Part shown: positions 16,301-62,925 of the stretch, in pieces | How positions within the stretch are numbered: position 1 is the stretch's first letter | Layout of the letters: every line of letters begins with the position of its first letter | Source: Vicugna vicugna | Taxonomy: Eukaryota | Direction: 5' to 3' | NCBI GenBank assembly: GCA_013265495.1 | Contig: MU057597.1 | Coordinates: 560,207 to 624,206 of the forward strand | DNA: 64,000 nucleotides | Made by a program: the position numbers and the translations under genes | Notes under the pieces: model-generated | Told to the model about the DNA's origin: nothing | Databases searched by the model: none | What the model saw: only the letters and a program-made list of their open reading frames with translations

Positions 16301-16946
16301 GAACCGAAGGGTTGTACTCAACTGTGGCTCTATTCTGACTTGGATATGGAGAGTATTAAATACATGACATGGGTGAAATTGTGTATTTGTTTTTAAGGAA
16401 AAGTAAAGAATCAGTTGGACCTCATTTTGAGTTTCTAATTCATTACAAAGGCAATTAAACCTCAATACTGAAAATTCAGGAAAAAGTAGGTATAGAAAAA
16501 TGGAATCATCCAATGCTACTTACATGAGGAAGCAGCACTGACTTAATGCTTCCTCAAACCGTTGGATCCTGGTGCTTTTCCGCTTGAGGGACTCATAAAC
16601 CTTTCCCTTTCTGTAGATGTTGTTCTCTTTAGACTTCTTATCACTAGTGGAGAGATCAACATTGGTAAAGTATATTTTCCAAACCAATTTCCATATCATC
16701 TACACTTCCAAATAACTGGCATTGAAACATGAAAGATCATCCAAGGATATCTCATGTCAATGATTGACATCATCCTCTTCTCTTTGACTGTAACACCTTG
16801 CAAATCCTTTTAGGTACTTTGATTTTACTTCTATGATTCTAACTTAAATGATGGGGCATTTCAGCCGTCTGGATATTAGAAAGTACTCAATTTTCTGTAG
16901 AATTTCTCAGGAGAGCAGAGAATGCAGTGAAATTCTGCTGTTTCAG

Positions 16947-17065
16947 TGGGGAGGGATGACTCAGGGGCAGAGCACATGCTGATAGCATGCATGAATACCT
17001 GGGTTCAATCCCCAGTACCTCCATTAAAAAAACATACAAGAATAGTGAAAACAAAAATAAAAAAA
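16947..17065 (+). mobile_element. Camelid tRNA-derived SINE
   Basis: CTGGGTTCAATCCCCAGTACCTCCATTAAAAAA. Confidence 0.8.
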
Positions 17066-17269
17066 GGAATTCTGGTGTCTCCCTGACATTCCCTCACCTG
17101 ACCTGCATTCCCTGACAGGCAATTTTTGCCCTTTTTCCTGTGAACTTCAGTCTACCTCCTGGAATTTGTGCAAAAGAAAGAGCCTCTTCCATACACTGCC
17201 GAGGTCTCTGGGGAGATGCTAACTTAGAACTTGTCATTGTTGTTTTCAGTAGCTAGCCACTGGGAAAAA

Positions 17270-17527
17270 GTTTTTCACAAATATTCTCAGCTTCCCACGT
17301 CTGCATACTCATTGTAGCTACAGGTGAAAAGATAATTGCGGTTCCAAGGCGAGGTGAGGTCACAGAATCACAAAGTCATATACAGGGTCTGGCTGCCGCC
17401 CTCCCACATGAGCTGCTTGCTGTGACCATCACCCTGAGCCCACCTTTCTGGCAGTAGGAGGTTTTTGGGGAGTATTTCCTATTTCAATTTGAGAGGCAGG
17501 CTGCAAAGAAACCTCTCAGGCATGTGG
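17270..17527 (+). promoter_or_regulatory. V1R conserved promoter block and non-coding exon 1 (gene at 18440)
   Basis: Homologous to 50870-51131 and to 32754-33025 on minus; donor GG|GTAAGT at 17528; acceptor at 18389 or 18394. Confidence 0.75.
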
Positions 17528-18439
17528 GTAAGTGACCCTATCAGGAGAAGGGATTGTTCTGGGTTTGAAGTTGATCCAGTCCCAAAGCCACACAGCAAGG
17601 AGGAAGAATACTGAGGCTTGAGCTGACCTAGTAAGGAGAGACAGGGTCCTAGACCCTGCACCAGTCCCCGATGTCTCCTAATGTGATTTAGTATAATCCT
17701 CAATGACAGTGATTGTGGGAGTTCCATCCACGAAGCAATGAAACCTGATTTTAAAGGTGCTTAAGGACTGCAGTTTGAAATCAATCTGCTTGTGAGGCTT
17801 GCTTTCAGGACCCAGAGACTAAGTTTTCAGGATTACTAGAGCTTTGGTATTAATACAGGGATCAGTCATTCTGGATGGCAATCGCCATACTAAGAAAGTT
17901 TTCTCTAGATCTGGGAGTGTGAAGTGCTTAATGGACACAGTGTGTCTCTACTAAAAACACCTGTGGTCTGTTGATTTGATGAGACTTTTTCCCCCCTTGA
18001 ATTTAGGGAAGCAGCACTTAAGAGAGAATAACTTTTATAAATAATGGGTTTCTGATGTCAGGTTCAAACACATACCATGATATTTTCCCTGCTTTAAAAA
18101 TTCTAACGTCAGTCACAAACTCCGGAATTTCCATTTATAAATGACACAGTATTTACAAAGTAAAGTTTCAGCTTTGCATAGAAACCAAAGAATAAGTTAG
18201 TAACTGCTTGTACATTTTTCATAGCAGTGATTTGGATGTTGTAAGTCTTCTTTAAAGGTTATACATACAGCTCCTTGAGCCTAATAATAAAAATGATCTA
18301 ATGAAATGTTTCTCAGTGAGAAATAAAGTAAGTGGAGAATACTGGGTTTTAATTGACAAGATACCAGTAACCCATTCCTTGTCTTCCAGCACAGGATCCT
18401 TTGGCTCTGTACACGTTCCAGTCACTGGGAACCAGCAGA

Positions 18440-19336
18440 ATGTCTTCCAAGGATCTGACAATGGGAGTGGTCTACTTAACACAGACTGTAGTTGGAATCT
18501 TGGGGAATGTCTGTTTTCTTTACCATTGTCTCTGGAGGTCAAGGCCAATAGATTTTATTCTTAAGCACCTGATGTTAGCCAACTCCTTAGTCATTCTCTC
18601 TAAAGGAGTCACCCAGACAATGGCAAGTTTGGGGTTGAAACTTTTTCTCAGTGATGCTGGATGCAAAGTTATTTTCTATGTTCACAGGGTGAGCAGGGGT
18701 GTGTCCATTAGCACTACCTGCCTCTTGAGTGTCTTCCAGGCCATCATGATCAGCCCCAGGAGCTCCAGGTGGGCTGAACATAAAGCAAAAGCTCCCAAGT
18801 ATGTGGGCATCTCTATTTCCTTATGCTGGTCACTAAACATGATGCTTAAAGGTACAGTTGTTTTGTATGTAACTGGCAAGTTGGGCAAGAAAAATATCAC
18901 CCATAAAAGAGATTTTGGACACTGTTATGTTGAATTTCTTGATGAAATCACAGACTCATTGAATACAGTATTGGTTTCAATCCCTGACGTGTTCTGCTTG
19001 GGGCTCATGCTGTGGGCCAGCAGCAACATGGTTTTCATCCTGCACAGGCATAAGCAGCAGGTCCAGTATATTCATAGGACCAGTGTCTCCTGCCAATCAG
19101 CCCCTGAGACCAGAGCCACCCAAAGCATCCTTGTCCTGGTGAGCACCTTTGTGTCTTTTTATACCCTCTCCTTTATCTTTCACATTTACTTCTCTGTTGT
19201 AAATCATTCCAGTTTTTGGCTAGTGAACACCTCTGTACTAATGTCCGCATGTTTCCCGACTGTCAGCCCTTTTGTGTTCATGAACAGGGACTCCAGTGCA
19301 CTCAGGCTCTGCTTTCCCTGGATAAGGATTACATAA
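18440..19336 (+). CDS. VN1R4-like: Vomeronasal type-1 receptor, 298 aa, open ORF
   Basis: V1R motifs GILGN, GCKVIFYVHRVSRG, TTCLLSVFQAI, LHRHKQQVQYIH, PETRATQSIL, CFPTVSPFV. First ATG at 18440; the track start at 18401 is TTG. Confidence 0.95.
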   Translation: MSSKDLTMGVVYLTQTVVGILGNVCFLYHCLWRSRPIDFILKHLMLANSLVILSKGVTQTMASLGLKLFLSDAGCKVIFYVHRVSRGVSISTTCLLSVFQAIMISPRSSRWAEHKAKAPKYVGISISLCWSLNMMLKGTVVLYVTGKLGKKNITHKRDFGHCYVEFLDEITDSLNTVLVSIPDVFCLGLMLWASSNMVFILHRHKQQVQYIHRTSVSCQSAPETRATQSILVLVSTFVSFYTLSFIFHIYFSVVNHSSFWLVNTSVLMSACFPTVSPFVFMNRDSSALRLCFPWIRIT

Positions 19337-26929: not shown

Positions 26930-27557
26930 AGCTTTGTCTAGACAGCTAATGCCTTTTATTATTTATTGAGATGATTTTAAAGATCTTATTTAGCCCCAGA
27001 CATGCAGTTTTAAGGGGGCTGTGATTCTGAATTTGGTAAAGAAAGTCCTTCTGTCAATCTGTGTTTAAAGAGAGCTCTTTCTCTCCCCTGCCCTTTAGTT
27101 CCCGGTTTTACTGACTGAGCTAAGCTGGGTTAATGTGGGCTGTGTTTACATTTCAAAAGATAAGATCAATAACTTGAAGGGACAAAGATAGTGTAAGTTT
27201 TCTCCTAGGAGTTTTGGAGAATTTTTGTCTATTACCATAAGATGTAGGGTAGATTTTATTTAATTGTTTCCCTTTGTAAATACAGGAAAAATATGCTGCA
27301 ATATCCTGATCTTTTACAATACCTATAAGCATTTTGAGTGGAATTGGGGTGGGCTTGGGGTTGGAAGATTTAAATGGGCCTTGATTTGTTTCTAGTTGCA
27401 TTTCTAGTTTTGTGGAGATTTTTCAATAAAGACAGTTGTTTCTACTAGCCCTTGAATATTGGCTTCCAGCAGATCAATTTCTTGATAATTTGTAGAAGGG
27501 CCTGGGTAATGGCTGAGGAGACAAGTTAATGTTTTCCTCTTTTCAGAAGGAAAATTG

Positions 27558-28125
27558 ATGTTGGATATATAGTTTAAATCTAAGTTCTTGCATCTCAATA
27601 AGGGATTCCCTAAGGCTAGTCATTGCCAATAAAAATTGACACTTACCATCTGCGTCTACAAGGATTGGGTCATCTTGGCACTTGCCACCTACCTCTGCTT
27701 GGATTAGGCCATGAACTGCTGCAGCTGCTGACATCCAACACCTTCTGAAAGGTGTTGAGGCTGGAGATCAGGAATGGGGCGCTCTGTGCTCTGGGAAAAC
27801 GGGCAGAACAGTCCTTCAGAGAGTTAGATGTTTTCAGGAGATTTTAGAAGCCCAAATTCTTGCATCTCCTCAAATCTAGAAAGACACTAAAGTCATTTAT
27901 GGTGACTCTGCTCCTTGTGACTAGCAGCAATCTTCTGTCTTAAGTGTGTGCTTGACCTCACATACCCCTCTTCACTAAAATCATCATACTGAGCTCCTCC
28001 CTGCCTCTTTGGAGCCATTCCTCAGAGCTATCTGAAATGCCATCTCCCTGGCTATAGTCCTCATTTTACCCCACATAAAATTTTACCCACAGCTCTGATG
28101 TTGTGTGCTTTTATTTCATTCGACA
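27558..28125 (+). mobile_element. Nested ERV1 solo LTR
   Basis: TGTTGGATAT...TTCGACA; interrupts homology with 46800-46850. Confidence 0.65.
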
Positions 28126-29444
28126 TCATTTTACTTTCTCCCACTTTCAATTTGATCATTGTACTAATATGGCAGTTGTAATTATAATGAGGGCTCCTAA
28201 AGGTTTTCCTTACATATTGCCAGTTTGAAGGATCCATTTCTGTCCATTAACTACTGGAATCTTGTTTTCAAAGCAATGGAAACTAATAAACATTTTTATA
28301 GCTTAACCAAAGATGCAAAAGTTATCTCACTGGAGATGATATAGCCTTCATAAGATCCAGAAAATTCACTCCCAGGGTTAGTCTAAGAAAGTAAAATTCC
28401 TTCATTGGTACAGATGTTAACAATGTATTGAAAAAGCTGTCTCCAGTTTCCCATGGGTATGTGATGTGCCTTTAGTCCTAGACATGCAATTCTGAGACCC
28501 TACGGGGCATTGATGGAATGAGGCTTTTCTAGTGCATTCAAGGGAATGAGGGTTGGTTAGGCAAACGTCCCTTTTGAACTGAGACCCCTTGTAAGCATCC
28601 TTGTGGAATTGGAATGGCTGGACACAGGGTGTGTCTGTGACTTTTTGTCTTCGATCTTCTGCCTGGATGAGTGATCAGCAAATACACTCCGTAAGTTCAA
28701 CTTCCAGTTGGCAGAGACCAGAGGATATATTCTCACTTGTCATAAAGCCAAACACTGAGGACATAGAACAAAATAACAGCAACATCAAAAACCATCTGGA
28801 TTTTACCTGGGAGAACCACAGTAAAATTGGTCTTTATTGACGCCAGTCTAATGAGAAATATTTCACGAATCTATGGTTCTGTTAAAATAGAAGGCTTGTA
28901 AAGTGCCTCTGCCTTCTGCTGTATGGTCCTTCCTCTTTATGACAGATGAACCAACAGATAGAAACAAAGGGAAACAGTGACCATTTGTAGGAAGGAAAAT
29001 AATTAAAAGAAAAAAAAAAAGAGAGTACTCATTTACAAAAACCGAAGTAACTGCCCTAAGGAACTGGCTACAAAATATTTTCCCTGGCTAACCTAAAATT
29101 AGATACGGAAAGGACCCTCACCACTTTCCCTCAGCAGACCCTGTGGGCAGAGGTCTGGGAGGCTGACAAGGTAAGAAACCTCATCTCTTGTTGGCCTTGT
29201 CAATATCTCAGGATGTAAAAGCTGCAGCTGCCTGGAGGCAGGGAATTGGGTCCAGCCAGTCTCCTTACTGGCTAAACACCTGTTCAGGAGGAGGAAATAT
29301 CCCCGCTATTTCTATTGAGGTTTGGTGGCTGGTCTAATAATAAAATTAATACAATATAAGTTAACAGGAGTAAAAGATTTAATTTGTGTCTACAAAGATC
29401 TCATAGACAAAGACCTAATGACTAATGACATGGTATTGATTAGT

Positions 29445-29549
29445 TTTCTTTTCTTTCTTTTCTTTTAGTGAAGATCCTGGGAATTGAACCCAGAACCTTG
29501 TGCATGCTAGCTAGCCATGTGCTCTACCACAGAGCTATACCCACCCCCT
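29445..29549 (-). mobile_element. Camelid tRNA-derived SINE
   Basis: CTGGGAATTGAACCCAGAACC...GCTCTACCACAGAGCTATACCC with T-rich tail. Confidence 0.85.
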
Positions 29550-30185
29550 GGTTCTTATTTAGTCAAAGATTTACACATAATTGGCTTGAGAAGTACATTA
29601 TTAAAGAAGTCACAAGATCTGTTTATACAGGCTTCTCAGCGCTGAATTACCTGCCTTTAGTGATGAAGATGTCTTTCAACATCCAGAAGAGGGAGGGCAC
29701 ATTTCACATGGGAAATATATTTTCGGCTTTTAGGGAGATAGGGGAGAATCAAAGTGTCCCTCTTGCATTGGCCATTTTTTAAGTAACCTTAATTTAAAAT
29801 CATCCATATGCTGTTAAGGAATCAATTATGTCTCCATATAGGGGCAGACTTCTCTGGGTCTCAAGAAGTTCTAGATAGCTTATCAGTAATCTGCAGATGG
29901 TTTCCACAGCTGCAGATTAAACAATGTATAAACTTGGAATGCCTCCACTAAAATTATTAATAATTATTGAGTTAGATATTTATGACCTTGATAAATGCAT
30001 CTCATTACTATTATCATTGCTATGGATGCTGACATTCATTTAGGAGCAAAAATATTTACCTCTCTCTTGTAAACTGAGTCATAAATGTCATATTTCATGA
30101 GATTTAGGGATAAACAATGAATCATTGTCAATATGCCTGTAATTTACATATTTGTGATAGATTTCTCTGATTTTTGTATTTTATT

Positions 30186-31085
30186 CTAGTGAAAGCAGAT
30201 CTGAGGTACTCTGGAGTCATGGATCATGAGAATGTAGGGGCTGACAGCCGGGAAACATGCAGTGATCAGGGCAGCAGTGTTCTTTAACCAGAAACTAGGA
30301 TTGTTAAAAACTGCCAAACAAATGTGTAAGGTACCAGAAAGTGTCCACAAAGAAATGAAGAAGCACATCATGACAAGGATGCTTTGGGTAGCTGCAGTTT
30401 CAGGGGAGGTTCTAGGAGACTGATTGTTCCTGTGAATGTACTGGACACGCTGCCTGTGCCTGTGCAGGATAAAAACCATGGACCCACTGGCCCAGACCAT
30501 CAGCACCAAATAGATACCATCATGGAGTAATACTATTGGCACATAGAGTGACTTGGTGATTTTACAACAATTTAATGCATAACAGTAGCCATGATCTATG
30601 TTGCTTAAGGTGATTGTATTGTTTATTCTGTTAGTTATATGGAAAGGAACCAAAATATTTAGCATCATGGTCAAGATCCAGCAGAGGATATTGGAGATGC
30701 CCATGTACCTGGGAGCTTTTACTTTAAGCTCTGCCAACCTGGAGCCACTGGGACTGATCATGATCACCTGAAAGATACTCAGGATGCAGGTGGTGCCCAT
30801 GGACACATCTCTGCCCATTCTGTGAATATAAAAAATAAATTTGCATCCAACATCGCTGAAGAAAATTTTCAACCCAAATGCTGTCAGTGTGTCAGGGATT
30901 CCTTTGGAAAGAAAGAGTAAGAGGTTGGCTGAAGCCATGTGCTTGAGAATCAAATCTGTGGACCTAAATCTGCCTCCTGTGAAGTGAAGGAAGAGAAAAT
31001 GATAAACAAGACAGAAATTCCCCAGAAGTCCTGCTATGGTCTGTAAGGAAATGACCACTCCTATTGCCAGCTGCTTGGTGGCCAT
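30186..31085 (-). CDS. VN1R4-like: Vomeronasal type-1 receptor, 299 aa, open ORF
   Basis: GLLGN, RSTDLILKH, GCKFIFYIHR, LHRHRQRVQYIH, CFPAVSPY. ATG at 31085; the track start at 31109 is GTG. Confidence 0.95.
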   Translation of the reverse strand: MATKQLAIGVVISLQTIAGLLGNFCLVYHFLFLHFTGGRFRSTDLILKHMASANLLLFLSKGIPDTLTAFGLKIFFSDVGCKFIFYIHRMGRDVSMGTTCILSIFQVIMISPSGSRLAELKVKAPRYMGISNILCWILTMMLNILVPFHITNRINNTITLSNIDHGYCYALNCCKITKSLYVPIVLLHDGIYLVLMVWASGSMVFILHRHRQRVQYIHRNNQSPRTSPETAATQSILVMMCFFISLWTLSGTLHICLAVFNNPSFWLKNTAALITACFPAVSPYILMIHDSRVPQICFH

Positions 31086-32753
31086 TCTGTCAAGTCCCAG
31101 GGAAGACACTCTTCTTCTGAGCTGGATATTCCTTTATGGAGGTACGAGGCACAGCGCCGTGTAGCATATCAATTAGTTTACCTTGCTTTTACTTCTAGTG
31201 GAGATCCTGAAATTGAAATGGATAGTTCATTCAATATTCTTCACTTATATCAGTTCCCCCTGAATGATAATTATTCCTCGTTCTTTCTTTTAATCGGGTG
31301 TCTGAGAGATGAATATGTAACAGTGAAAGAGCTTTACAAAATATGGCTCCCTATGTAAAAGTATTGCATGTAATACATTCTGTGTTCTTCATAATGTCAT
31401 GCGAGGGTCAGTACTAGTATTTTCATTGAAAACATAAGGAGCACTTAGGCAGATCAGGCTTAATGATTTTTACAGATTTAAAACCCTTTATCATAATATG
31501 TGGAGATTAGATCCTTGCTAGATTGGTAAACTAATAGTGCATTTAAACACAATGATATTTTAACAAAGCTAGTTATTTATTTTCCTGTAAAATACTAATG
31601 TATATTAATATTTTCCCATACGTTTGTCATTTCACTCATGGTTTGCTGGTATGTTTTCAGTATATTTATAGTAAGACATTTCCATTTATCTTTATATATT
31701 CAACATATATGTCAGTATTGATTATGGTTAAAATGGAAATATCTTAACAAAATTTAGATATGTTGATTGTAGTATAATTCTCGGGAACTGCTCCCTGTAA
31801 AACTGTATTTTTAAAATGCACTGTAAGCTTTCTGTTTTGGAAACAGAAACACTACCTTGCTTTTATGAAAGAAGTGGAATGACTTCTATTAGAGGAATCA
31901 CTGAAGACTATGTCATACCCTGAACTAGGACACCTGAAACAGCAATATGTGATGAAGTAGTGTGGTCTGGAAGATGAATATTACTAATTCAACTCACAAA
32001 ATAATCTGTTAATTAGCAGGAAATTCAATGTATTAAGAGTAACTGAAGGTTTTTGAAACATTAATGTATCACATATTTAGCAAATACAAATACTAAGATT
32101 TGATATATTTTTCCTGTAGAAAATGAAATTGCAGAGTTTCAAAGATAAGAAATTTTATAAACCAGAACATAGGCCACGTTATACTTTCATATTGATAGCT
32201 CTTGTCTGAAAACCATTTTTGCATTTACCTTTGCTTTACATTTCTCTTCTTGAATGTAATGGAAAATGGGCTGGCAAAAATCAATAAATGATCGATGTTT
32301 TCATTAGGAAACAATGTCTCCATTAAGCACTTTTTACACACAGAAGAAGAGAAAATGTTTTTATTCCAGCAGTTGTCATTGGCATACAGTACTTGTATAA
32401 AAGAGTTGATCATTCCTGTAAATTTATTCTAGATTTTATGAAACATAGAGATGGTATTGACACACCTGGATACCTCAAAAATGTACCCTCTGATTACTCT
32501 GATGTAACCTGTTTACAGAGGCATTTCTGAATTACAATCATCAGTTACATTTAAAATCAGGTTTCATATCATTTGGATTAAACAGTTACAATCACTGTCA
32601 TTAGGAAGCAATAGAAATTGAGGGCTGGTCTAGCATCCCCTTCTCCCTTTAATAGCTCCCTTTAGTTCTTGGATTTATCCTTTCTTACTGTTTTCCTATG
32701 GCAGTAGACCAATTTCAACATGAACAGTTCTTTTTTCCTGTATGATCACTTAC

Positions 32754-33025
32754 CTAGTTTTCTGATACCCCTCATTTGTTGCAGATTCTTGCTCTAAGAC
32801 TGAAATAGGAAATACTCGTTTCTCTTCCTCTGGTTGCCTGGAGAGTGGATTCAGTGTGCTGGTCACAGCAGCCTGCTCCTATGGCAGGAAGGGAGGAAGC
32901 TGGACTCCAAGATATGGGATGTGATGCTGTGACCTCCCCTCTCCTCCCTTCAGAATTGCAATTATCTTTTCACCTGTAATTTCAATGTGAGACAGGCTTG
33001 GGGACCTGAAAACATTTGTGAAAAA
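32754..33025 (-). promoter_or_regulatory. V1R promoter block and non-coding exon 1 (gene at 31085)
   Basis: Core at 32958-32978; donor AG|GTAAGT at 32753; acceptor TTTCAG|GATC with exon starting at 31206. Confidence 0.75.
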
Positions 33026-34019
33026 ATTATTTCCCAGTTGCTAATTATCAAAAGACAATTAAAAGTTTGTAGTTATCTTCTCCAAGGAAGTACTGCAATT
33101 AAAGAAAAGCTCTTTTTTGCCTTGATCCTGGGAGGCAGACAGGAACTCAAATGGGAGCAGCAGTAAATCCTGAGGTGTGACACATGAAGACCTTTCAGGG
33201 AATTTCATGTGTCTTCTTGTATATTGTGCTCCCCTGAGAAGTGTTTCTACTCAAAATGAGTTGTTTCCTAGTGTTGAGTTGAGTTCAGTTCCACTGAACT
33301 GTGCCTTCCTTTAGGTTATGCGTAGGAATATGAAACCAAACAAAGAACCTTACCAGGATTTCCAAAGAAGTAAAAGGAAGAACATGATGCAATAATTTAT
33401 TTTGGACCATAGCACTTACATAGAAAGCATCGGGCATTTTTTGCTCAACTAATCTAATCATTTTCAGTTATTTGGAAATCTAGGTGATATGGAAAATTTC
33501 TAGCAAATTACACTTCATGAAGAGTGACTTTTTCCTTCTCCCAAGTTTGGTGATAGAACGTCTAAACAGAAGAATATCCACTTGTAATAACCTCTAATGA
33601 AAAAATTGAAAATGAATGTAGGTATGTATATATAGTTCTATACACCAGAAATTGACACATTGTAACTGACAGTACTTCAATTTAAAAAAAAGAATATCCA
33701 TTTATCGATGGAAATATATAGATGTGTTTCTCACCTATAAAAGCACCGAGATCAGATGGTTAAAAAGGCCAATTTTAGAGTTTCTTGCCTATCACATAAG
33801 TCAGTGTTACCTCCTTACCTCAAGAGCAAAGAGCATTTGTCAGCAATATAAGGCAAAATGAGGATCACCCAAATTAAGAATCAAAACTTTGATCTGTGTC
33901 ATTGAGAAACAGGAGAAAGTTCCTTAAGTTTGAAAGGGCACATTGTCACATTTTGGTCCTGCAAGTCCTTGCCCATAGCCCGAAGCTCGGGGAGTCACAT
34001 GTGATCATCAAATGTTGAT

Positions 34020-44608: not shown

Positions 44609-44710
44609 TTAAAGAAAATTGCTAAGCTGTTGGCAGCATGTTTCTCAGCTCTGAGCCCCTACATTGTCATGAGCTATGACTCCAGAGTACCTAGGGTCTG
44701 TTTTGATTAG
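44609..44710 (+). pseudogene. V1R remnant: TM7 and C-terminus only (LKKIAKLLAACFSALSPYIVMSYDSRVPRVCFD*)
   Basis: Aligns with LKNTAALITACFPAVSPYILMIHDSRVPQICFH*; 3' flank 44711-45030 is homologous to 53517-53845. Confidence 0.9.
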
Positions 44711-45029
44711 ACTGGAATTCAAAATTCCCCAAACCTATCAAAAATATGTAAATTATATGTATATTTACAATGGTTCTATATCCATTCCTCTGACTGAATG
44801 CATGTCATTTATGAAATACTTATAAGAGTGGTACACAAGATAAACTGAGCTTCTGCTCCTAATTAAACAACCTTATCCATATAAATGATATTAGAAAATG
44901 ATGTGCTTATATAGTCAATATATATTCAATTCTATCTTTATAAATGTTTGTCTTAGACGAGTCTACAGCCTATGCATTATTTAAAACTGTGCAAAAAGAA
45001 TCTGCAGATGATGCATAAACTACTTAGAA

Positions 45030-48000
45030 TGTGTTGGAACCCAGAGCAGGCTGCCACAAAATATGCCTCAATAACATATTGGTTATTTTGAATTAAAGTA
45101 CTTGAGAAACGACCAGTCCAAGGGGGACAATTTGACCCTTTCCTGAATGGAGAAAATAAATTCCCCATCTGAAAGATTCCCTCCCTGTAACAGGAAGTTC
45201 AAAAACATCATCATCTCTACAGATAGGGAATTTAGAACCAGGAAGCCTCTATGAACAGACCTTGTTTCTTCTTAAATAATTTATTTCTGAAGCCGACTTT
45301 GCTTTTTTGTTTTTTTACTAAGTAAGCCATCAAATCCAAGTTTCTCTGTCCTGTCAATTCTTCTCAAATTTCTTGCTACTTGTTTATGAGAGATAAAAGC
45401 TGCCTGCTTTTGCTACCTCTTAGGTCCTGTTTCTAGGAGACATCTCTGGTTACAACTTAAATTCTTTTTTCCTGTCACTCTGTCTTGTGTCAGTTTTATT
45501 ATTAGACCATCCACAAGAAATCAAGAGAAGTAGAAGGAAAAATTTCCCCTCCCCAACACTTGGTGAGGTAGCAAGGAGACTGGCTGTGTGATTCTCTGCC
45601 CTCAGGCAACTCTAAGAGTCCCAAGGACACCAAAGACCTGCAGGAGATAAGATTTCTTGCCCTGTCAGGCTCCTAGATCCCTGCCCACTGGGTCTGTTGG
45701 AAGGAAAAGTGGTAAGAGTCTCTTTTCTACCTCTCTAAGTTTAGATTAGCTTGATAAAATATTTTGTAGCTAGTCCTTAGGACATAGTGACTCTGGTTTT
45801 GGTAAATGAGTACTCAGGCTTTTAACTGATCTTTTCCTACCAGAGATGGTCACAGTTTTTCTTTGCTTCTGTCTGTTGGGTCATGATGGTTCAGAACTGC
45901 AGGCAGAGACCCTTTATAGAGTCCTGCAGATGGACTTGCCTCACAGACTGGTAAATTAACCATTCTCATAAGATTGGCAACAATATACACCTACTTGACT
46001 GTGGTATTTTTGCACAAGGTATTTTTGCTTTTCGGTTTCTTGACTTGTTCTACAATTTTAGAGCTTGGCTTTATGACCAGAATTCTCTATGGTCTCTGTC
46101 ATCTCAAATGTGCACTTATGGGGAGCATCTGGTGGTCAGATGAACAGACTGGGGTTCCAAGACACAAAGTCCTAAGAACCACTGTCTTTGACAGCCATTC
46201 CAGAATCAGGGGAATATTCTCAAGGACTTGCAGTCCATAAGGAGCCTCTGTCTTACCAACCTGCAATGCACTGATAGTGCTGGAAAAGCCCCATTCCAGC
46301 AGTGCCTCCCCAGTGCCACAGATTAGCGTGTCTAGGACTAAAGGCACCTTACTGCCTCCTGGGCACCTGACACACTGTGTTCACTACACCATTCTTTACT
46401 ATAGCAATTCAGTACTTTTACTTTCTTAGACTAATTCTGACAGTGAACTTTCTAGATCTTTTAAGGCTTACATCATCTCTTTTGAGATACCTATTTGCAT
46501 ATTTGATTAAGCTAATAAAAAAGGCATTTTTTTTTTTAGTTACTATGTGAAAATAATATACCATCCCACTTGTTCATGAACAGACAGGAATTCTTTATGT
46601 ACTTTTTTTTTAGGGGTGAGATACTTACTCAGACAGGGATCCTTTAAATTGGGTGTATTTAACAAGAAAAATATGATAGCTTTCATTATAAACACCCATC
46701 ATATTGGTACAAAAGAAAGAACAAAATTGCCTTATGGAATCCCTTATTAAGGTGAAAGAACAGAAATTAGACATAAAATATATATCAAACATAAACTCTC
46801 CTTCTTAGACAAAGAAACATTACCCTCACTTTGGCAATTATCCACCCCCTCAACAGGAAACAGGAAATAGATCACCCAGAAGTCAGTATTCAAGGGCTAA
46901 TAGAAACAACTCTCTTAGTTTTGAAAATCTCCAGAAAACTAGAAATGCACTCCAGACGCAAGACATGGCCCACTTTTCTGTACCAATTCCAAAACCTCCC
47001 CTATTCCACTCAAAATGTGTATAGATATTTTAAAGGATCAGGATATTGTGGCAAAACTGTCCTGTGCTTAAGAAGGAAAAAATTGAATAATAAATCCCCT
47101 AACACTAATGACAATAGATAAAAATATTCCAAAAACTCCTAAGAAAAAACTTAGATTTTCTTTCCTTGTGCCTTAAAGTTTCATGTCTTATTCGGTCTTT
47201 GAAATGTAAACCCAGCTCACATTAACCTAGCTTATTTCAATCAGTGGAACCTGAAACTAGGGGGAGAAAAGAGAGAGAGAGAGAGAGACAGAGAGAAAAT
47301 AGACACCACTGTAACCAGAAAATGATAGTAGAAGGACCTTTTCCCCAAACTCCAATTCACAGCCTCTATAAAATTGTGTGACAAGGTCAAATATAGATCT
47401 TAAAAGTCTTCTCAACAAATAACAAGACATTAGCTGTCTGAGCGAGCACAACTAAATTTCAAGTTATTATTTATGAACTAGTGAGTTTTGTACTGTACCT
47501 GATTCATGAGTAAAGTTTAAAATTAAAACTCTGAGATTAAGTATATTTGTGTCAATTAGTAAACATGGCTTGAGACTTAGTGAAGAATTATACTATGTGG
47601 TAGCATGTTTCCAGAAATTATGAAATGCTAATTCAGTTCACAATAGTATATATTTCTTTATTTTCACTATAAAAAATTGAGATCTCCAATGATTAAGAAT
47701 TCTTGGTAACAAAGATGGTTACAGCTACTAGAAATAATAAAGAAAGTAGGATGTGTCTAGGAATTAAAAAGAGGTTAAGGTACTGAGATTTTTTTCAAGG
47801 AAATTAAAAATCTATTTTGTCCTACAGCTCTTACTTCATGTAAAATGGACATAGAATATTGTAAAAGGTTTGTAAAAAAAAACAAAAAGAAATTTTAGAG
47901 AAGTTTATGTGTGGTCAGAATTGGCAAGATTGGAATCAATTAACTTATGAGTTTTAATTAAACTGTTGCAAAATTAATGTTAGTTTGTTTTCTCTCTGTT

Positions 48001-50400: not shown

Positions 50401-50869
50401 CCGTCTTGTCTCTCCTTTGGCTCCTTGTGGTCAGACTGCATCTGCCACCATCTTCTTTCTTTCCTACTATGCCCAGCAATGCCTCCACTATACCCTTACA
50501 TCTACATACAACTCTCTCACTAAACCTCCCCTTTTCAAACCTTCAATTCATAAAAAGAGAAAAATGGCAATAGTTCTGAAACACAAAAAGTGAAGCACAG
50601 TAAAAGGTTTCCTTCTATTTACTTTTGCTGTTTTCCAAGAGCCGCCTTCCAGAACTACCAAATTCAGTGAGACACATGAAATTCCCTGCCAGGCCTTCAC
50701 ATGTCACACCTCAGTATCTGCTGCTGCATCCATCTGAGTCTCTGTCTGCCTCCAGGGATCAAGGGAAAAAAAGCGTTCTCTCAAACATTAAAATTGTCCC
50801 TTTGGAGACGATAACTACAAACTTTAAGTGGCTGCGTTGCAATTAGCAACTAGGTGGGGAAAAACAGGT

Positions 50870-51131
50870 TCTCACAAATATTCTCAGTTCACCAGGCCTG
50901 TCTCAGGTTGCAGCTACAGGTGAAAAGATAATTGCAATTTGAGGGGCGGGCAGGTCACAGCATCACATCCCATATCTAGGGGTCCGGCTTCCTCCCTCCC
51001 TGTCACAGGAGCAGGCTGTGTGACCAGCACACTGAATGCACTCTCCAGGCAACCAGAGGAAGAGAGGTGAGTATTTTCTATTTCAGTCTTAGAGAAAGAA
51101 TCTGCAAGAAATGAAGGGTGTTAGGATCTGG
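50870..51131 (+). promoter_or_regulatory. V1R promoter block and non-coding exon 1 (gene at 52617)
   Basis: Core at 50915-50935; donors at 51067 (GTGAGT) and 51132 (GTAAGT). Confidence 0.75.
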
Positions 51132-52616
51132 GTAAGTGATCATAAAGGAAAAGGAATTCTTCTGCTTTAAATTGGTCCAGTGTCAAAGAAAAAGAGGAAG
51201 AAACTACTCATTTTCATTCAGAAATACATCTGCAGCAAGTTTACTTTCCAGAAATCACAGAGTACTTCTTCAGGGTCACTATATGTGTGCCAACAGCACC
51301 TCCATGATTAATAAAAACTAGAATAAACCTACAGGAATGATCTAATCTTTGATAGAAACAGTGTATATGATGGACAATTGCTAAAAATAGAAATACTTTC
51401 TCTGACTCTGGGTGTATAAAGTGCTTAACAAAGACATTGATGGATTCCCACTGTAAACATCCATAGTTGGTTGATTTGATCAGACCGATTTCCATCAAGT
51501 TAGGGAAGGGGAATGTTACACAAAGGTAACTTCGAAAATGGGTTTCAAGTACCACCTATCAGGCACAAAAGTACAGTGTGATCTATTCTCTGCTTTCAAA
51601 ATACTCTCACAGATCCAAGCTCTACAGATTCATTTTATACAATAAAAAGATATCACTTTTTTTAAATTTCATTTTCTATGCAGGTGATATATTAACATTT
51701 CACAAATATTCACCTCCTGTTAATACCTTTATTGTCATGGTAATTAATGTATCAGTTTATGATTTGAACTTAGACATATTTATTTTCTATGCCACACGGC
51801 TTTTCACATGCTGATATTTCAACTGTCACAGTCCAGGGCATGACAGAGTCATCAGTAATTCCTCTGAGAGATATCTTTCCAATCTTGCGTAAAAGCAACT
51901 TAGTATTTCTGTTGTCAAACCAATAAAAAGCTGAGAGTGAATTTTTAAAATGCCATGGCATAGAACACATCCCTTGAATTATACTATATTCAGTTTTTCC
52001 ACATTTAATTAAGATACATAAAACCTTATCCATACTTGGTACTGTCCCATACAATAAACAAAGATAAATGGAATCTTGATACAGAAATATTTTTTAAAAT
52101 ACCAGAAAATCTAAAAGGAAGGGATGAGGGATGAAAATACATAAATATAAATTTGTCTTTTATTTAAAAAAATAACTAACTACCTTTGTAAAAATATCAT
52201 ATAAGTGTGCTGTGATTTTAGCAATTTAATCAGGTTCTAATCTCCAGCTTTTTCATAAAAAGGCTGTAAATTTGGACAACTCATTGAACTTTATAAGCCC
52301 CAGTGCTCCTAATGTTCTGAATTTGAATACTAGTAATGACTCTTAGATGAATTTAGGATGAATGCTGAGTTTATTAAAGACATAACTTTTATACACTATC
52401 CCAGGTTTTGCAAAGGTCTTCCAATGTTATACACTGATCACTCAGACACTTGTTTAAAAGAAAGAAATATAATTACTTTTCAATGGGAACTAATGCACAC
52501 GAAGAATATTGATTGAAGAATATCAATTTCACTTGATATGATACACGGAGCTCTGCCTCATATCTCCAAGCGGGAATCTCTGGTTCAGAAGAATATTTTC
52601 CCTGGGATTTGACAGA

Positions 52617-53516
52617 ATGGCCATCAATCATCTGGCAATAGGAGTGATCATTTCATTACAGACTGTAGCAGGACTTCTTGGGAATTTCTGTCTTGTTTAC
52701 CATTTTCTCTTCCTTTACTTCACAGGAGGCAGATTCAGGTCCACAGATTTGATTCTCAAGCACTTGACTTCAGCTAATCTCTTAGTTCTTCTTTCCAAAG
52801 AAATCCCAGAAACACCAGAAGCTTTTGGGTTGAAATCTTTCCTCAATGACTTTGGATGCAAACTTGTATTTTATGTTCAAAGAGTGAGCAGAGATGTGTC
52901 CATGGGCACCACCTGCATCCTGAGTATCTTTCAGGTGATCATGATCAGCCCCAGCGGCTCCAGGTTGGCAGAGCTTAAGGTAAAAGCTCCCAGGTTCATG
53001 GGCACCTCCAGTATGCTCTGCTGGATCTTCAGCATGTTTCTAAATATTTTGGTTCCTCTTTCTACAACAGACAAGTTGAACATGACAATAATCACAGAGT
53101 ATATTGATCATGGCTACTGTTATTCAATAACTTTTGGTAAAATTGGGGACATACTCTATGCACCACTTGTATTACTCCAGGATGGTTTCCGTTTGGTGCT
53201 GATGGTCTGGGCCAGTGGCTCCATGGTTTTTATCCTGCACAGGCACAAGCAGCGGGTCCAGTACATTCACAGGAACAATCAGACTCCTAGACCCTCCGCT
53301 GAGACCACAGCTATGCAAAGCATCCTTGTCCTGTTGGGCGTCTTTGTTTCTTTATGGACAGTCTCCTCTGTCTTTCACATTTGTGCCTCAGTTTTTCACA
53401 ATCCCAGTTTCTGGCTGAAGAACACTTCCAGGATAATTGCTGGGTGTTTCCCAACTGTCAGCCCCTACATTCTCCTGATCCAGGATTCTAGAGTCTCTAC
53501 GTTCTGCTTTGCTTAG
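52617..53516 (+). CDS. VN1R4-like: Vomeronasal type-1 receptor, 299 aa, open ORF; close paralog of the 31085 gene
   Basis: GLLGN, RSTDLILKH, GCKLVFYVQR, LHRHKQRVQYIH, CFPTVSPY. Confidence 0.95.
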   Translation: MAINHLAIGVIISLQTVAGLLGNFCLVYHFLFLYFTGGRFRSTDLILKHLTSANLLVLLSKEIPETPEAFGLKSFLNDFGCKLVFYVQRVSRDVSMGTTCILSIFQVIMISPSGSRLAELKVKAPRFMGTSSMLCWIFSMFLNILVPLSTTDKLNMTIITEYIDHGYCYSITFGKIGDILYAPLVLLQDGFRLVLMVWASGSMVFILHRHKQRVQYIHRNNQTPRPSAETTAMQSILVLLGVFVSLWTVSSVFHICASVFHNPSFWLKNTSRIIAGCFPTVSPYILLIQDSRVSTFCFA

Positions 53517-55855: not shown

Positions 55856-57855
55856 GGACAGGGGGCCAAGATGGCAGAGTAGAAGGATGCTCGTAGCTCA
55901 CCCTCTCCCACAAATACACCAAAACTCATCCACGGACCCACCCGGCTAACCAGAGCACCTGCTGAACTCCAACAGAACTTCACCCTCTTCAAAAGACAAA
56001 GATACTAGAAGTCTGGTAGGAGAAAAGGAAAAAAAGAAAGAAGAAAAGGCAAAACAGTGTGGGGCTGGTCCCGTGGGGAGGGAGTGGCAAAGGAGGAAGA
56101 GCGCTCGTTCGCTGGGTCTCCCCTTCTCCAACAGAGAGGCCAGTGGAATGGAGGGGAGCCTCCAAGGCTCGGATTTGTAGGGATCACCCTTTGACCGACA
56201 GAACTAAGTTAAACGGGCACAGAGGGTCCCCGCAACACCCAGCCTGAGACTACAGCCGGCAGCTGGGGGCCAGGCCAGGCTGCCCGAGCTGGGTGGAGGA
56301 CAGGGGCGGCTACACTGACACAGCCCTGGGGGCCTGCGTGGGGCTGTGTGCCGTGGTTGAGTGGGTGCACAGGGCAGAACAACCTGGGCACTCCATAAAA
56401 ATTCATGGCTGATGTGCCCTTGAGGGAAGGGTACCATTCCCCCATTTCTGCAAACCTGCGGAAGGTATTCAGATGAAGAGAGGCGGGGCTCAGGCATGGC
56501 CACCATATCCTCCAGCGGTTAGTACCCAGGCGGGGATGGGGCCAAAATCTGAATCCGCACCGAAAGGCTTAGCAGCCTCAAACGCTAGACGGAGACTTAT
56601 TTACAGCCCAAGGCAGATAGGATCTTACTGCTCTGGTACCTCAGAGAACTCGCTCCGCCAAGACAAACAAGGAGCTAAGTTTTGGCACAGAGCAGGGGCG
56701 GGAGGCCACCTGCCTTCCTGGCAGGAATGCAGCACCTGACCACGGTGCTGGGAAGGGGTGCAATCCGCCCGCCTACCTCGCCAGACTGCAACATCTGACT
56801 GCAGCATCGGTAGGAGGAGTGACCCACCCACCCACCGGGAAGGAGAGCAGCACCTGACCCCAGTGTTGGGAGGGGGCGCAATCTGCTTGCCAATAGGCAG
56901 GCACTGGGAGCAGCACAGCTGAAGGCACCAACGGAGGGACTCTGGAAACAGCAAGCTGAGTTCGCGAAACAGGACAAAGACAGAAAGACTTCTCATTAAG
57001 ATTGCACAGTCTCCATGAGAACACCCTCCCTTTTTTTAAAAATATTTTTTATCTGTTCTACTTTCTATTAACTTTCTTAATTTTTACTTTTGAAACAATT
57101 ATATATGGTTCCAGTCTTAATCCCTTTAAAATTTTTCTTTTAAAATACTTCTAGAATTATTTTTTAAATCCACCTCATTTCATTTTTATTTCTCTTGGTT
57201 TTGACCTCCTGTTATTGATTATATACAGGTTTCAAATATGTTATTCCTCTTTTCTCCTTTTTTAAAGGTTTTTACAGATGTCTCAACCTGATTGCTGTTC
57301 TGCTTCAACTTACTTTTCTATTATTGATTATACACTGTTTTCAAACCTTTTTTCTCCTTTCTTTTAAAATTCCCTTTTTTAAAATCTTTTTTATCTGTAC
57401 TATTTTCTATTACCTTTTTAATTTTTACATTCTAAACAACTGTATATGCTTCTAGTCTTAATCCTTTTTAAATTTTTTCTTTTAAAATATTTTTATTATT
57501 ATTATTTTTAAAAATCCATCTGATTTCATTTTCAATTCTCTTGGTTTTGATCTATTGTAATTGATTATACACAGGTTTCAAATATTGTTTTTTGCTCTTT
57601 TCCCCTTTTGTTTTTTTTTAAAGGTTTTTAAAAAGACTTCTCAACTTGATTGCTAGTCTGATTCAAATTGCTCTTCCATTACTGATTATACACTTTTTTC
57701 AAACCTTTACTTTCTCCTTTCTTTTAAAATTCTCTCTCTCTCTTTTTAAGTTTTATTCCTGCATTGGTATTAGATAGATAAATAAATAAACTCCTTAAGG
57801 ACCACAATAGATAACTGATACTCCATAAGCCACAGTGTCAGAGAGGTCTGAGAAG

Positions 57856-59125: not shown

Positions 59126-62925
<3,800 letters not shown>

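Follow-up and report, generated by a model that had tools for sequence, protein, structure and literature searches.

V1R genes at the locus

The window, which is the whole stretch of 64,000 nucleotides of Vicugna vicugna DNA that was analysed, holds three intact open reading frames, all of which are V1R (PF03402). Gene A lies at 18440 to 19336 on the plus strand and encodes 298 amino acids. Gene B, which is VN1R4-like, lies at 30186 to 31085 on the minus strand, and gene C lies at 52617 to 53516 on the plus strand; each encodes 299 amino acids. At the protein level B and C are 71.6% identical, and gene A shares 51.5% identity with B and 52.2% with C. Gene B groups with a Camelus dromedarius VN1R4-like protein (94%) and is nearer to relatives from peccary, rhinoceros, and horse (67 to 68%) than to gene A (~52%), so the split between A and the B/C pair predates those orders. 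The original prediction had described A as a clearly more distant paralog set in much diverged sequence. The first half agrees with these values, but the flanks of A are related to those of the other two genes, with 68 to 69% identity across the shared block described below.

A fourth V1R, at 44639 to 44707 (plus strand), is a remnant comprising the C-terminal 23 codons and 3' flank only, and has no 5' part, promoter block, or core. The segment from 44609 to 47439 is an inverted duplicate of the 3' end of gene B and its downstream flank (26940 to 30287). Between B and C, four-fold sites are 83% identical (74/89) and the intron is 70% identical, a possible sign of coding-exon conversion. Protein A is about six residues shorter than B and C after the first transmembrane helix (18440 to 18560). 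A short interspersed repeat ending in poly(A), probably a camelid tRNA-derived SINE, occupies approximately 16940 to 17050, just 5' of the gene A block, and has relatives at 29440 to 29549. Elsewhere in the window there are local tandem duplications at 587 to 1076 and 57027 to 57690, with periods of 246 and 346, and a 227-amino-acid open reading frame at 62212 to 62895 that presumably represents the end of a LINE-1 ORF2.

A conserved block with a putative first exon

A block of about 330 bp is common to genes A, B, and C. It lies upstream of the V1R coding exons, is found in the window before the three intact genes only, and ends at a GTAAGT donor, with GGTAAGTGA present at the block end in all three genes. 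Identity across the block is 86.5% between B and C and 68 to 69% between A and either of them. In both comparisons the block is more conserved than the intron, for which the corresponding values are 70% and 55%.

Several elements can be placed within the block. O/E(EBF)-like sites, assigned from the O/E consensus, are found at 17205 to 17216 (plus strand) in A, where the match is degenerate, and at homologous positions in B (33079 to 33089, minus strand) and C (50797 to 50808, plus strand). A 21-bp core, treated in the next section, lies farther downstream and is followed by a second conserved element, a 17-mer that reads GAGGTCACAGAATCACA in gene A (17356 to 17372, plus strand) and is located at 32920 to 32936 (minus strand) in B and 50951 to 50967 (plus strand) in C. 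In gene A, a TATA-like element comes next, at 17377 to 17383 (plus strand).

Start sites mapped back from mouse fall near 17406, 32890, and 50997 in A, B, and C, respectively, and the predicted non-coding exon 1 is 122 to 137 nt long. In gene A it spans 17406 to 17527 (plus strand), with the 5' end taken from mouse RACE and uncertain by ~8 nt in either direction, and the donor GT is at 17528. In gene B it spans 32754 to 32890 (minus strand), with the donor GT following 32754, and in gene C it spans 50997 to 51131 (plus strand), with the donor GT at 51132. Mouse V1R exon 1 has a mean length of 146 nt, close to the camelid range. On the acceptor side, gene A has a polypyrimidine tract with candidate acceptors at 18372 to 18394 (plus strand), the AG ending at 18389 or 18394; the acceptor AG of gene B ends at 31132 (minus strand) and that of gene C at 52570.

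The gene B junction matches that of a vampire-bat VN1R4-like gene in NCBI, P0121, a predicted model with three isoform records and an N-terminal extension that was one of 24 extensions tested. The junction in P0121 corresponds to splicing of the gene B donor to the acceptor that lies 46 nt upstream of the ATG (47 nt in the bat), and the first part of the extension aligns weakly (E values of 0.18 and 0.096) to the 95 nt immediately preceding the donors of A and C. As mouse homologs of the whole block have mapped starts just past the core (see below), the block corresponds to a proximal promoter plus non-coding exon 1. Judged by sequence, it is a V1R promoter peak with a predicted start site, non-coding exon 1, and donor, and the 21-mer within it is very probably a proximal promoter element.

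Three further features of the exon were noted. The bat model annotates the homologous exon as coding, in frame with the receptor. Upstream ATGs are present in the putative exons 1, numbering two in A, one in B, and two in C. Finally, an inverted pair, GGTCACA before the predicted start (17358 to 17364) and TGTGACC after it (17421 to 17427), is kept in the three copies and lies at 32934/32867 in B and 50953/51019 in C.

The 21-bp core

The core, TACAGGTGAAAAGATAATTGC, is present as an exact 21-mer at 17319 to 17339 (plus strand), 32958 to 32978 (minus strand), and 50915 to 50935 (plus strand), in each case upstream of the ATG, by 1121 nt in A, 1893 nt in B, and 1702 nt in C. It contains an E-box, CAGGTG, a 6-bp spacer, AAAAGA, and a homeodomain-type site, TAATTG, that overlaps AGATAA. 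The E-box and TAATTG lie at 17321 to 17326 and 17333 to 17338 in A, 32971 to 32976 and 32959 to 32964 in B, and 50917 to 50922 and 50929 to 50934 in C. No further match to the 21-mer with three or fewer mismatches exists in the 64-kb window, and none arose in 100 shuffles. The looser pattern CANNTG-N6-TAATTR is likewise confined to the three cores in 64 kb, with 0.58 occurrences expected by chance.

Within the shared block, these 21 columns form the longest three-way invariant run, the runner-up being 9. When columns were permuted under three choices of block boundary, a run of at least 21 arose in 5, 32, and 34 of 100,000 trials, and the longest invariant run in the coding-sequence alignment of A, B, and C is 15. 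CACAAAT.TT.TCAG, which had been put forward as conserved alongside the core, is kept in the three camelid copies, but CACAAAT is absent from the mouse homologs.

Searches of other collections were also made. Viral contigs yielded eight exact 18-mer matches, all of them limited to the core with dissimilar flanks, and these are therefore ascribed to chance. Metagenome contigs contained no match to the gapped core pattern; as this collection is without a V1R gene (0 of 594 pattern matches confirmed), its zero is uninformative. By word content only, six sequencing runs of unstated kind contain 87 to 91% of the gene A region. Five runs that are, or may be, RNA contain 7 to 9% of the region's words. 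Neither figure bears on expression, start, or splicing.

Homologs of the block among mouse V1R promoters

The mouse set consisted of 39 sequences of 1 kb from supplementary file 2 of PMC3247230, taken as the regions upstream of RLM-RACE starts. All camelid-mouse promoter comparisons were made by eye, and they involve few genes. Three of the 39 promoters, those of V1rf5, V1rf4, and V1re9, are by this means homologous to the whole block and alignable over ~250 nt. The core ends 59, 63, and 67 nt, respectively, before their RACE starts, which bears out the original prediction of a V1R promoter element near mapped starts and puts the gene A core at approximately -87 to -67 from its predicted start. 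A TATA-like element, again located by eye, is near -30 in these homologs.

Aligned by eye, the core matches 17 of 21 positions in V1rf5, 15 in V1rf4, and 13 in V1re9. The chance of finding 17/21 or 15/21 within 11 positions in any of the 39 promoters is 1.5e-4 or 0.011, respectively, and the V1re9 value by itself is not above chance across the 39 (0.32). The 21-mer, described at the outset as invariant, is thus identical before all three intact camelid genes but not in mouse. The downstream 17-mer, also compared by eye, matches at 17 of 17 positions in V1rf4, 15 in V1rf5, and 14 in V1re9, a combined 46/51 versus 45/63 for the core. Among the camelid copies the run of 21 exceeds the rest of the block, but in mouse the neighboring element is the better kept.

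The differences within the core are unevenly placed. The E-box is CATGTG in V1rf5 and CAAGTG in V1rf4, so that CANNTG is kept with a variable center, and each is followed after 6 bp by TAATTG (by eye). All changes, four in V1rf5 and six in V1rf4, miss CA..TG and TAATTG; the hand-calculated chances of this are 0.055 and 0.0085, for genes that are related to each other. AGATAA is lost in both. V1re9, compared by eye, is without either core site, has CAATTA just upstream of its core, and is identical to gene C over 15 nt around the O/E-like site. The proposal of a composite site is favored by V1rf4 and V1rf5, which keep CANNTG-6 bp-TAATTG, but not by V1re9, which is expressed without both sites.

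P0124 and other mouse subfamilies

A further homolog was found by protein search. P0124 is a 90-amino-acid sequence translated from the reverse strand of the whole block in another mammal and matches all three camelid blocks with E values of ~1e-10. It was one of three matches to a reverse-frame query, the other two being long repetitive proteins that were set aside, and was the only match in a second round; the forward-frame translation of the block gave no relatives as a protein query. P0124 aligns gap-free across the core, where its residues are compatible with CAGATG-6 bp-TAATTG and with WGATAA and rule out CAGGTG and an AAA spacer.

By eye, an E-box occupies the core position in 11 of the 14 V1rc promoters, in one of which it abuts the start, and is missing from the other three. 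A TAA is situated 6 bp past the E-box in eight of the 14 (six TAAYTR, including two TAATTA), while V1rc22 and V1rc32 have a 3-bp spacer. Most V1rc promoters have TAACT or TAAG instead of TAATT, and WGATAA is present in six of the 14 (by eye). The closest is V1rc28, which by eye matches the core at 16 of 21 positions, ending 64 nt before the start (chance of 0.0014 over 39 promoters); the same purine-rich stretch recurs downstream, together with a TATA box. In the remaining 22 of the 39 promoters, from subfamilies A, B, D, G, H, I, J, and K, inspection by eye showed no comparable pair at the core position. The 6-bp spacing is accordingly found in three camelid genes, two V1rf genes, P0124, and eight of 14 V1rc promoters, which amount to few independent lineages. 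Both CANNTG and TAATT[A/G] are kept in V1rf4, V1rf5, and two of 14 V1rc promoters, are compatible with P0124, and are lost in V1re9.

Other E-box/TAA pairs lie farther from the start, in V1rh with a 3-bp spacer and in V1rb4 with a 4-bp spacer and then AGGTCACAG; these may be distant versions or chance occurrences. A separate sequence, AACTTTTAATGA, falls a single base short of the 13-mer homeodomain sequence found in the H and P enhancers of odorant-receptor genes. It is contained in the promoters of both V1rj3 and V1rk1 (supplementary file 2, PMC3247230).

A proposed paired bHLH-homeodomain site and its alternatives

The arrangement that we propose for the promoter would run from an O/E-like site (at about -200) through E-box-6 bp-TAATTG (about -85 to -68), the 17-mer element GAGGTCACAG.ATCACA (about -50 to -34), and a TATA-like element (about -30) to the start, followed by a non-coding exon 1 of 120 to 140 nt, an intron, and a single coding exon. 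The E-box would be occupied by a neural bHLH dimer, NEUROD1/E-protein or NHLH1, and TAATTG by a homeodomain factor, either LHX2 or EMX2. Both would act in late progenitors and in vomeronasal neurons that are still immature, the stage at which receptor genes first become active. By analogy, the pair and the O/E-like site might together confer competence for, or raise the probability of, initial promoter activation. The pair would be an adjustable module rather than a switch on which expression depends, because V1re9, which was cloned from vomeronasal organ (VNO) RNA, is expressed without it. On balance we favor this overall explanation, in which the core belongs to a proximal V1R promoter and carries an activator pair; the narrower claim, that the core is a putative site for paired bHLH and homeodomain activators, seems to us just on the probable side.

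The available text of a VNO atlas (PMC11630819) places Neurod1 in progenitors and immature vomeronasal sensory neurons, with Lhx2 marking immature neurons and Emx2 the whole lineage, and NHLH1 has been proposed for the TRPC2 promoter in the accessible part of PMC3170594. Against the pair stand its loss in V1re9, the better-kept 17-mer, the TAACT or TAAG of most V1rc promoters and GATAA in six of them, and the 22 mouse promoters in which it was not seen. In addition, the E-box center is loose for a single bHLH, varying among GG, TG, AG, and GA, and NEUROD1 is described in bioRxiv 10.1101/2023.05.29.541540 as lacking cooperation with ALX4 at a known 6-bp E-box/homeodomain motif.

The core might instead silence unchosen genes, with its E-box half being a repressor site (ZEB/SNAI or ZBTB18/RP58) and its second half GATA. 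CAGGTG and AGATAA are indeed perfect in all three camelid copies. ZEB prefers CAGGTG, and this is where the ZEB half of the original prediction breaks down: wherever an E-box survives in a whole-block homolog from outside the camelids, the sequence has become CATGTG, CAAGTG, or CAGATG. A ZEB-specific site was rejected, as the GG center is not kept in V1rf4, V1rf5, V1re9, or P0124. The GATA half fares little better, with AGATAA lost in all three whole-block mouse homologs, two of which retain TAATTG; WGATAA does occur in six of 14 V1rc promoters and is compatible with P0124, but for the clade of these genes the GATA reading, on the sequences compared, is probably wrong. For RP58, PMC3247230 reports a CNTCTGG (RP58-like) motif, which in V1rc promoters is the E-box half read on the opposite strand, and RP58 as 17 of 69 VNO BTB-ZF clones. 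The camelid and V1rf E-boxes, however, do not match CATCTGG, and the words "Zeb" and "Gata" are absent from the main text of the atlas PMC11630819. We regard a silencing core as improbable. A weightier alternative, if still an unlikely one, accepts the promoter block but attributes the 21-bp identity mostly to history, whether chance acting on block conservation or short gene conversion, with no composite site and with the functional core in the 17-mer and TATA region. Mouse homologs and P0124 differ from the core at four to eight positions, so selection does not require all 21, and the downstream 17-mer is kept better in mouse than the core. Conversion of V1R promoters has been proposed by Stewart and Lane (PMC1955453, in the part available), and the excess of B-C identity at four-fold sites over the intron points the same way. 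On the other hand, the identical runs are just 21 to 25 bp long in copies that are ~69% alike and stand in both orientations, and conversion among camelid genes leaves the half-sites and spacing of mouse V1rf4, V1rf5, and V1rc28 unaccounted for. With 10 to 12 positions taken as fixed, the invariance of the remaining core positions has a probability of 0.001 to 0.04, so something is left unexplained; stronger constraint in this clade or short conversion could account for the full camelid identity.

Two other readings carry little weight. The core could be a Coordinator-type site (TWIST1:E-protein with an ALX-class homeodomain), or be read by a similar pair, and CANNTG and TAATT[A/G] 6 bp apart across an A-rich spacer is a verbal definition that the camelid core fits. 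Only the camelid copies fit it, since P0124 and V1rc have no A-rich spacer. In the Coordinator logo, the A-rich strand reportedly has the homeodomain site first and the E-box second, opposite to the core. Moreover, Coordinator works only in enhancers of face and limb mesenchyme and depends on the TWIST1 loop, whereas this is a neuronal promoter; we regard such a site as very improbable. Least probable of all is a core that acts in RNA, through the 5' untranslated region, splicing, or an upstream open reading frame, or that is a repeat or assembly artefact. A conserved donor does follow the core after ~190 nt, and in each of the three copies a frame reads through the core without a stop, but the open frames differ in length, go out of register, and gave no protein relatives when used as queries. 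As the mouse starts are downstream of the core, it is presumably not transcribed, and a coding or RNA role was rejected on this ground and on that of register. A repeat artefact was rejected as well, since the block is confined to the three intact V1R genes and is not a tandem repeat.

The paired activator site admits a broader formulation, which we offer tentatively and consider possible rather than likely. The V1R promoters of mouse subfamilies E, F, and C and of placental VN1R4-like genes might all derive from one proximal promoter, in which the core would be a neuronal counterpart of Coordinator: a fixed-spacing bHLH-homeodomain site read cooperatively by a vomeronasal pair, such as NEUROD1 or NHLH1 together with LHX2 or EMX2. 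Variants of the site would set the choice frequency of each V1R. If the pair reading fails, an ordinary conserved V1R promoter with an annotated gene structure remains.

Relation to known promoters and motifs

Conserved V1R promoter peaks with a start and a donor motif are established in the available text of PMC1955453. The peaks described there and in PMC3247230, as far as the accessible sections go, resemble the camelid block in being islands of several hundred base pairs that lie kilobases upstream and contain the start, a short non-coding exon, and a donor; they differ in that an E-box/homeodomain pair with fixed spacing is not described in those sections. The same sections name O/E-like and CNTCTGG (RP58-like) motifs and see no clear homology from one subfamily to another, with E and F mentioned by name. 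Unlike that report, our comparisons by eye have the camelid block bridging mouse E and F, with C sharing the proximal layout. The CNTCTGG motif (MV3-MV7-MV12, RP58/ZBTB18-like; PMC3247230, in the part available) is near the start, as is the core, but the camelid and V1rf sites keep CANNTG without matching it, and the partner site 6 bp away is outside that motif. As CNTCTGG is the reverse complement of the V1rc E-box half, that half is already partly in print.

In the literature surveyed, no fixed E-box/homeodomain pair in V1R promoters and no E/F/C promoter homology were found, although figure logos and some supplements might show part of this; the motif letters gave three matches in paper texts, all unrelated. 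Conserved V1R promoters are thus already known, while the fixed motif pair and the cross-subfamily E/F/C promoter homology appear to be undescribed. The cis-code that activates V1R genes is still called largely unknown in the accessible passages of PMC12710957 and PMC9668312. Earlier motif searches were mouse-only, and a non-rodent outgroup singles out the two half-sites, their spacing, and the second downstream element. As these elements are at known distances from mapped mouse starts, concrete mutations are possible at V1rf4, V1rf5, and V1rc28.

The odorant-receptor code (Lhx2/Emx2 with O/E; PMC5318403 and PMC3247239, each in part) is like the block in combining TAATT-type and O/E-like sites within ~200 bp of the start, and homeodomain and O/E sites act in activation at odorant-receptor promoters according to the portion of PMC5318403 available. 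It differs in that the homeodomain site is here paired with an E-box, the O/E-like site being ~120 bp away. Coordinator (TWIST1:TCF4 with ALX4; bioRxiv 10.1101/2023.05.29.541540, in part) shares with the core an E-box, TAATT[A/G], the 6-bp distance, and an A-rich spacer, but belongs to mesenchymal distal enhancers, is TWIST1-specific, and probably has the two sites in the opposite order along the A-rich strand. The V1r promoter that Fpr-rs3 has captured (400 bp; PMC9668312 and PMC7873101, in the parts available) is likened to the block by description: it is short, includes the first exon, and is conserved in non-rodent mammals. According to PMC9668312, this 400-bp V1r-derived promoter can by itself direct VNO-specific initial choice but is not sufficient for maintenance, and it is at initial choice that the paired site in the camelid core would act.
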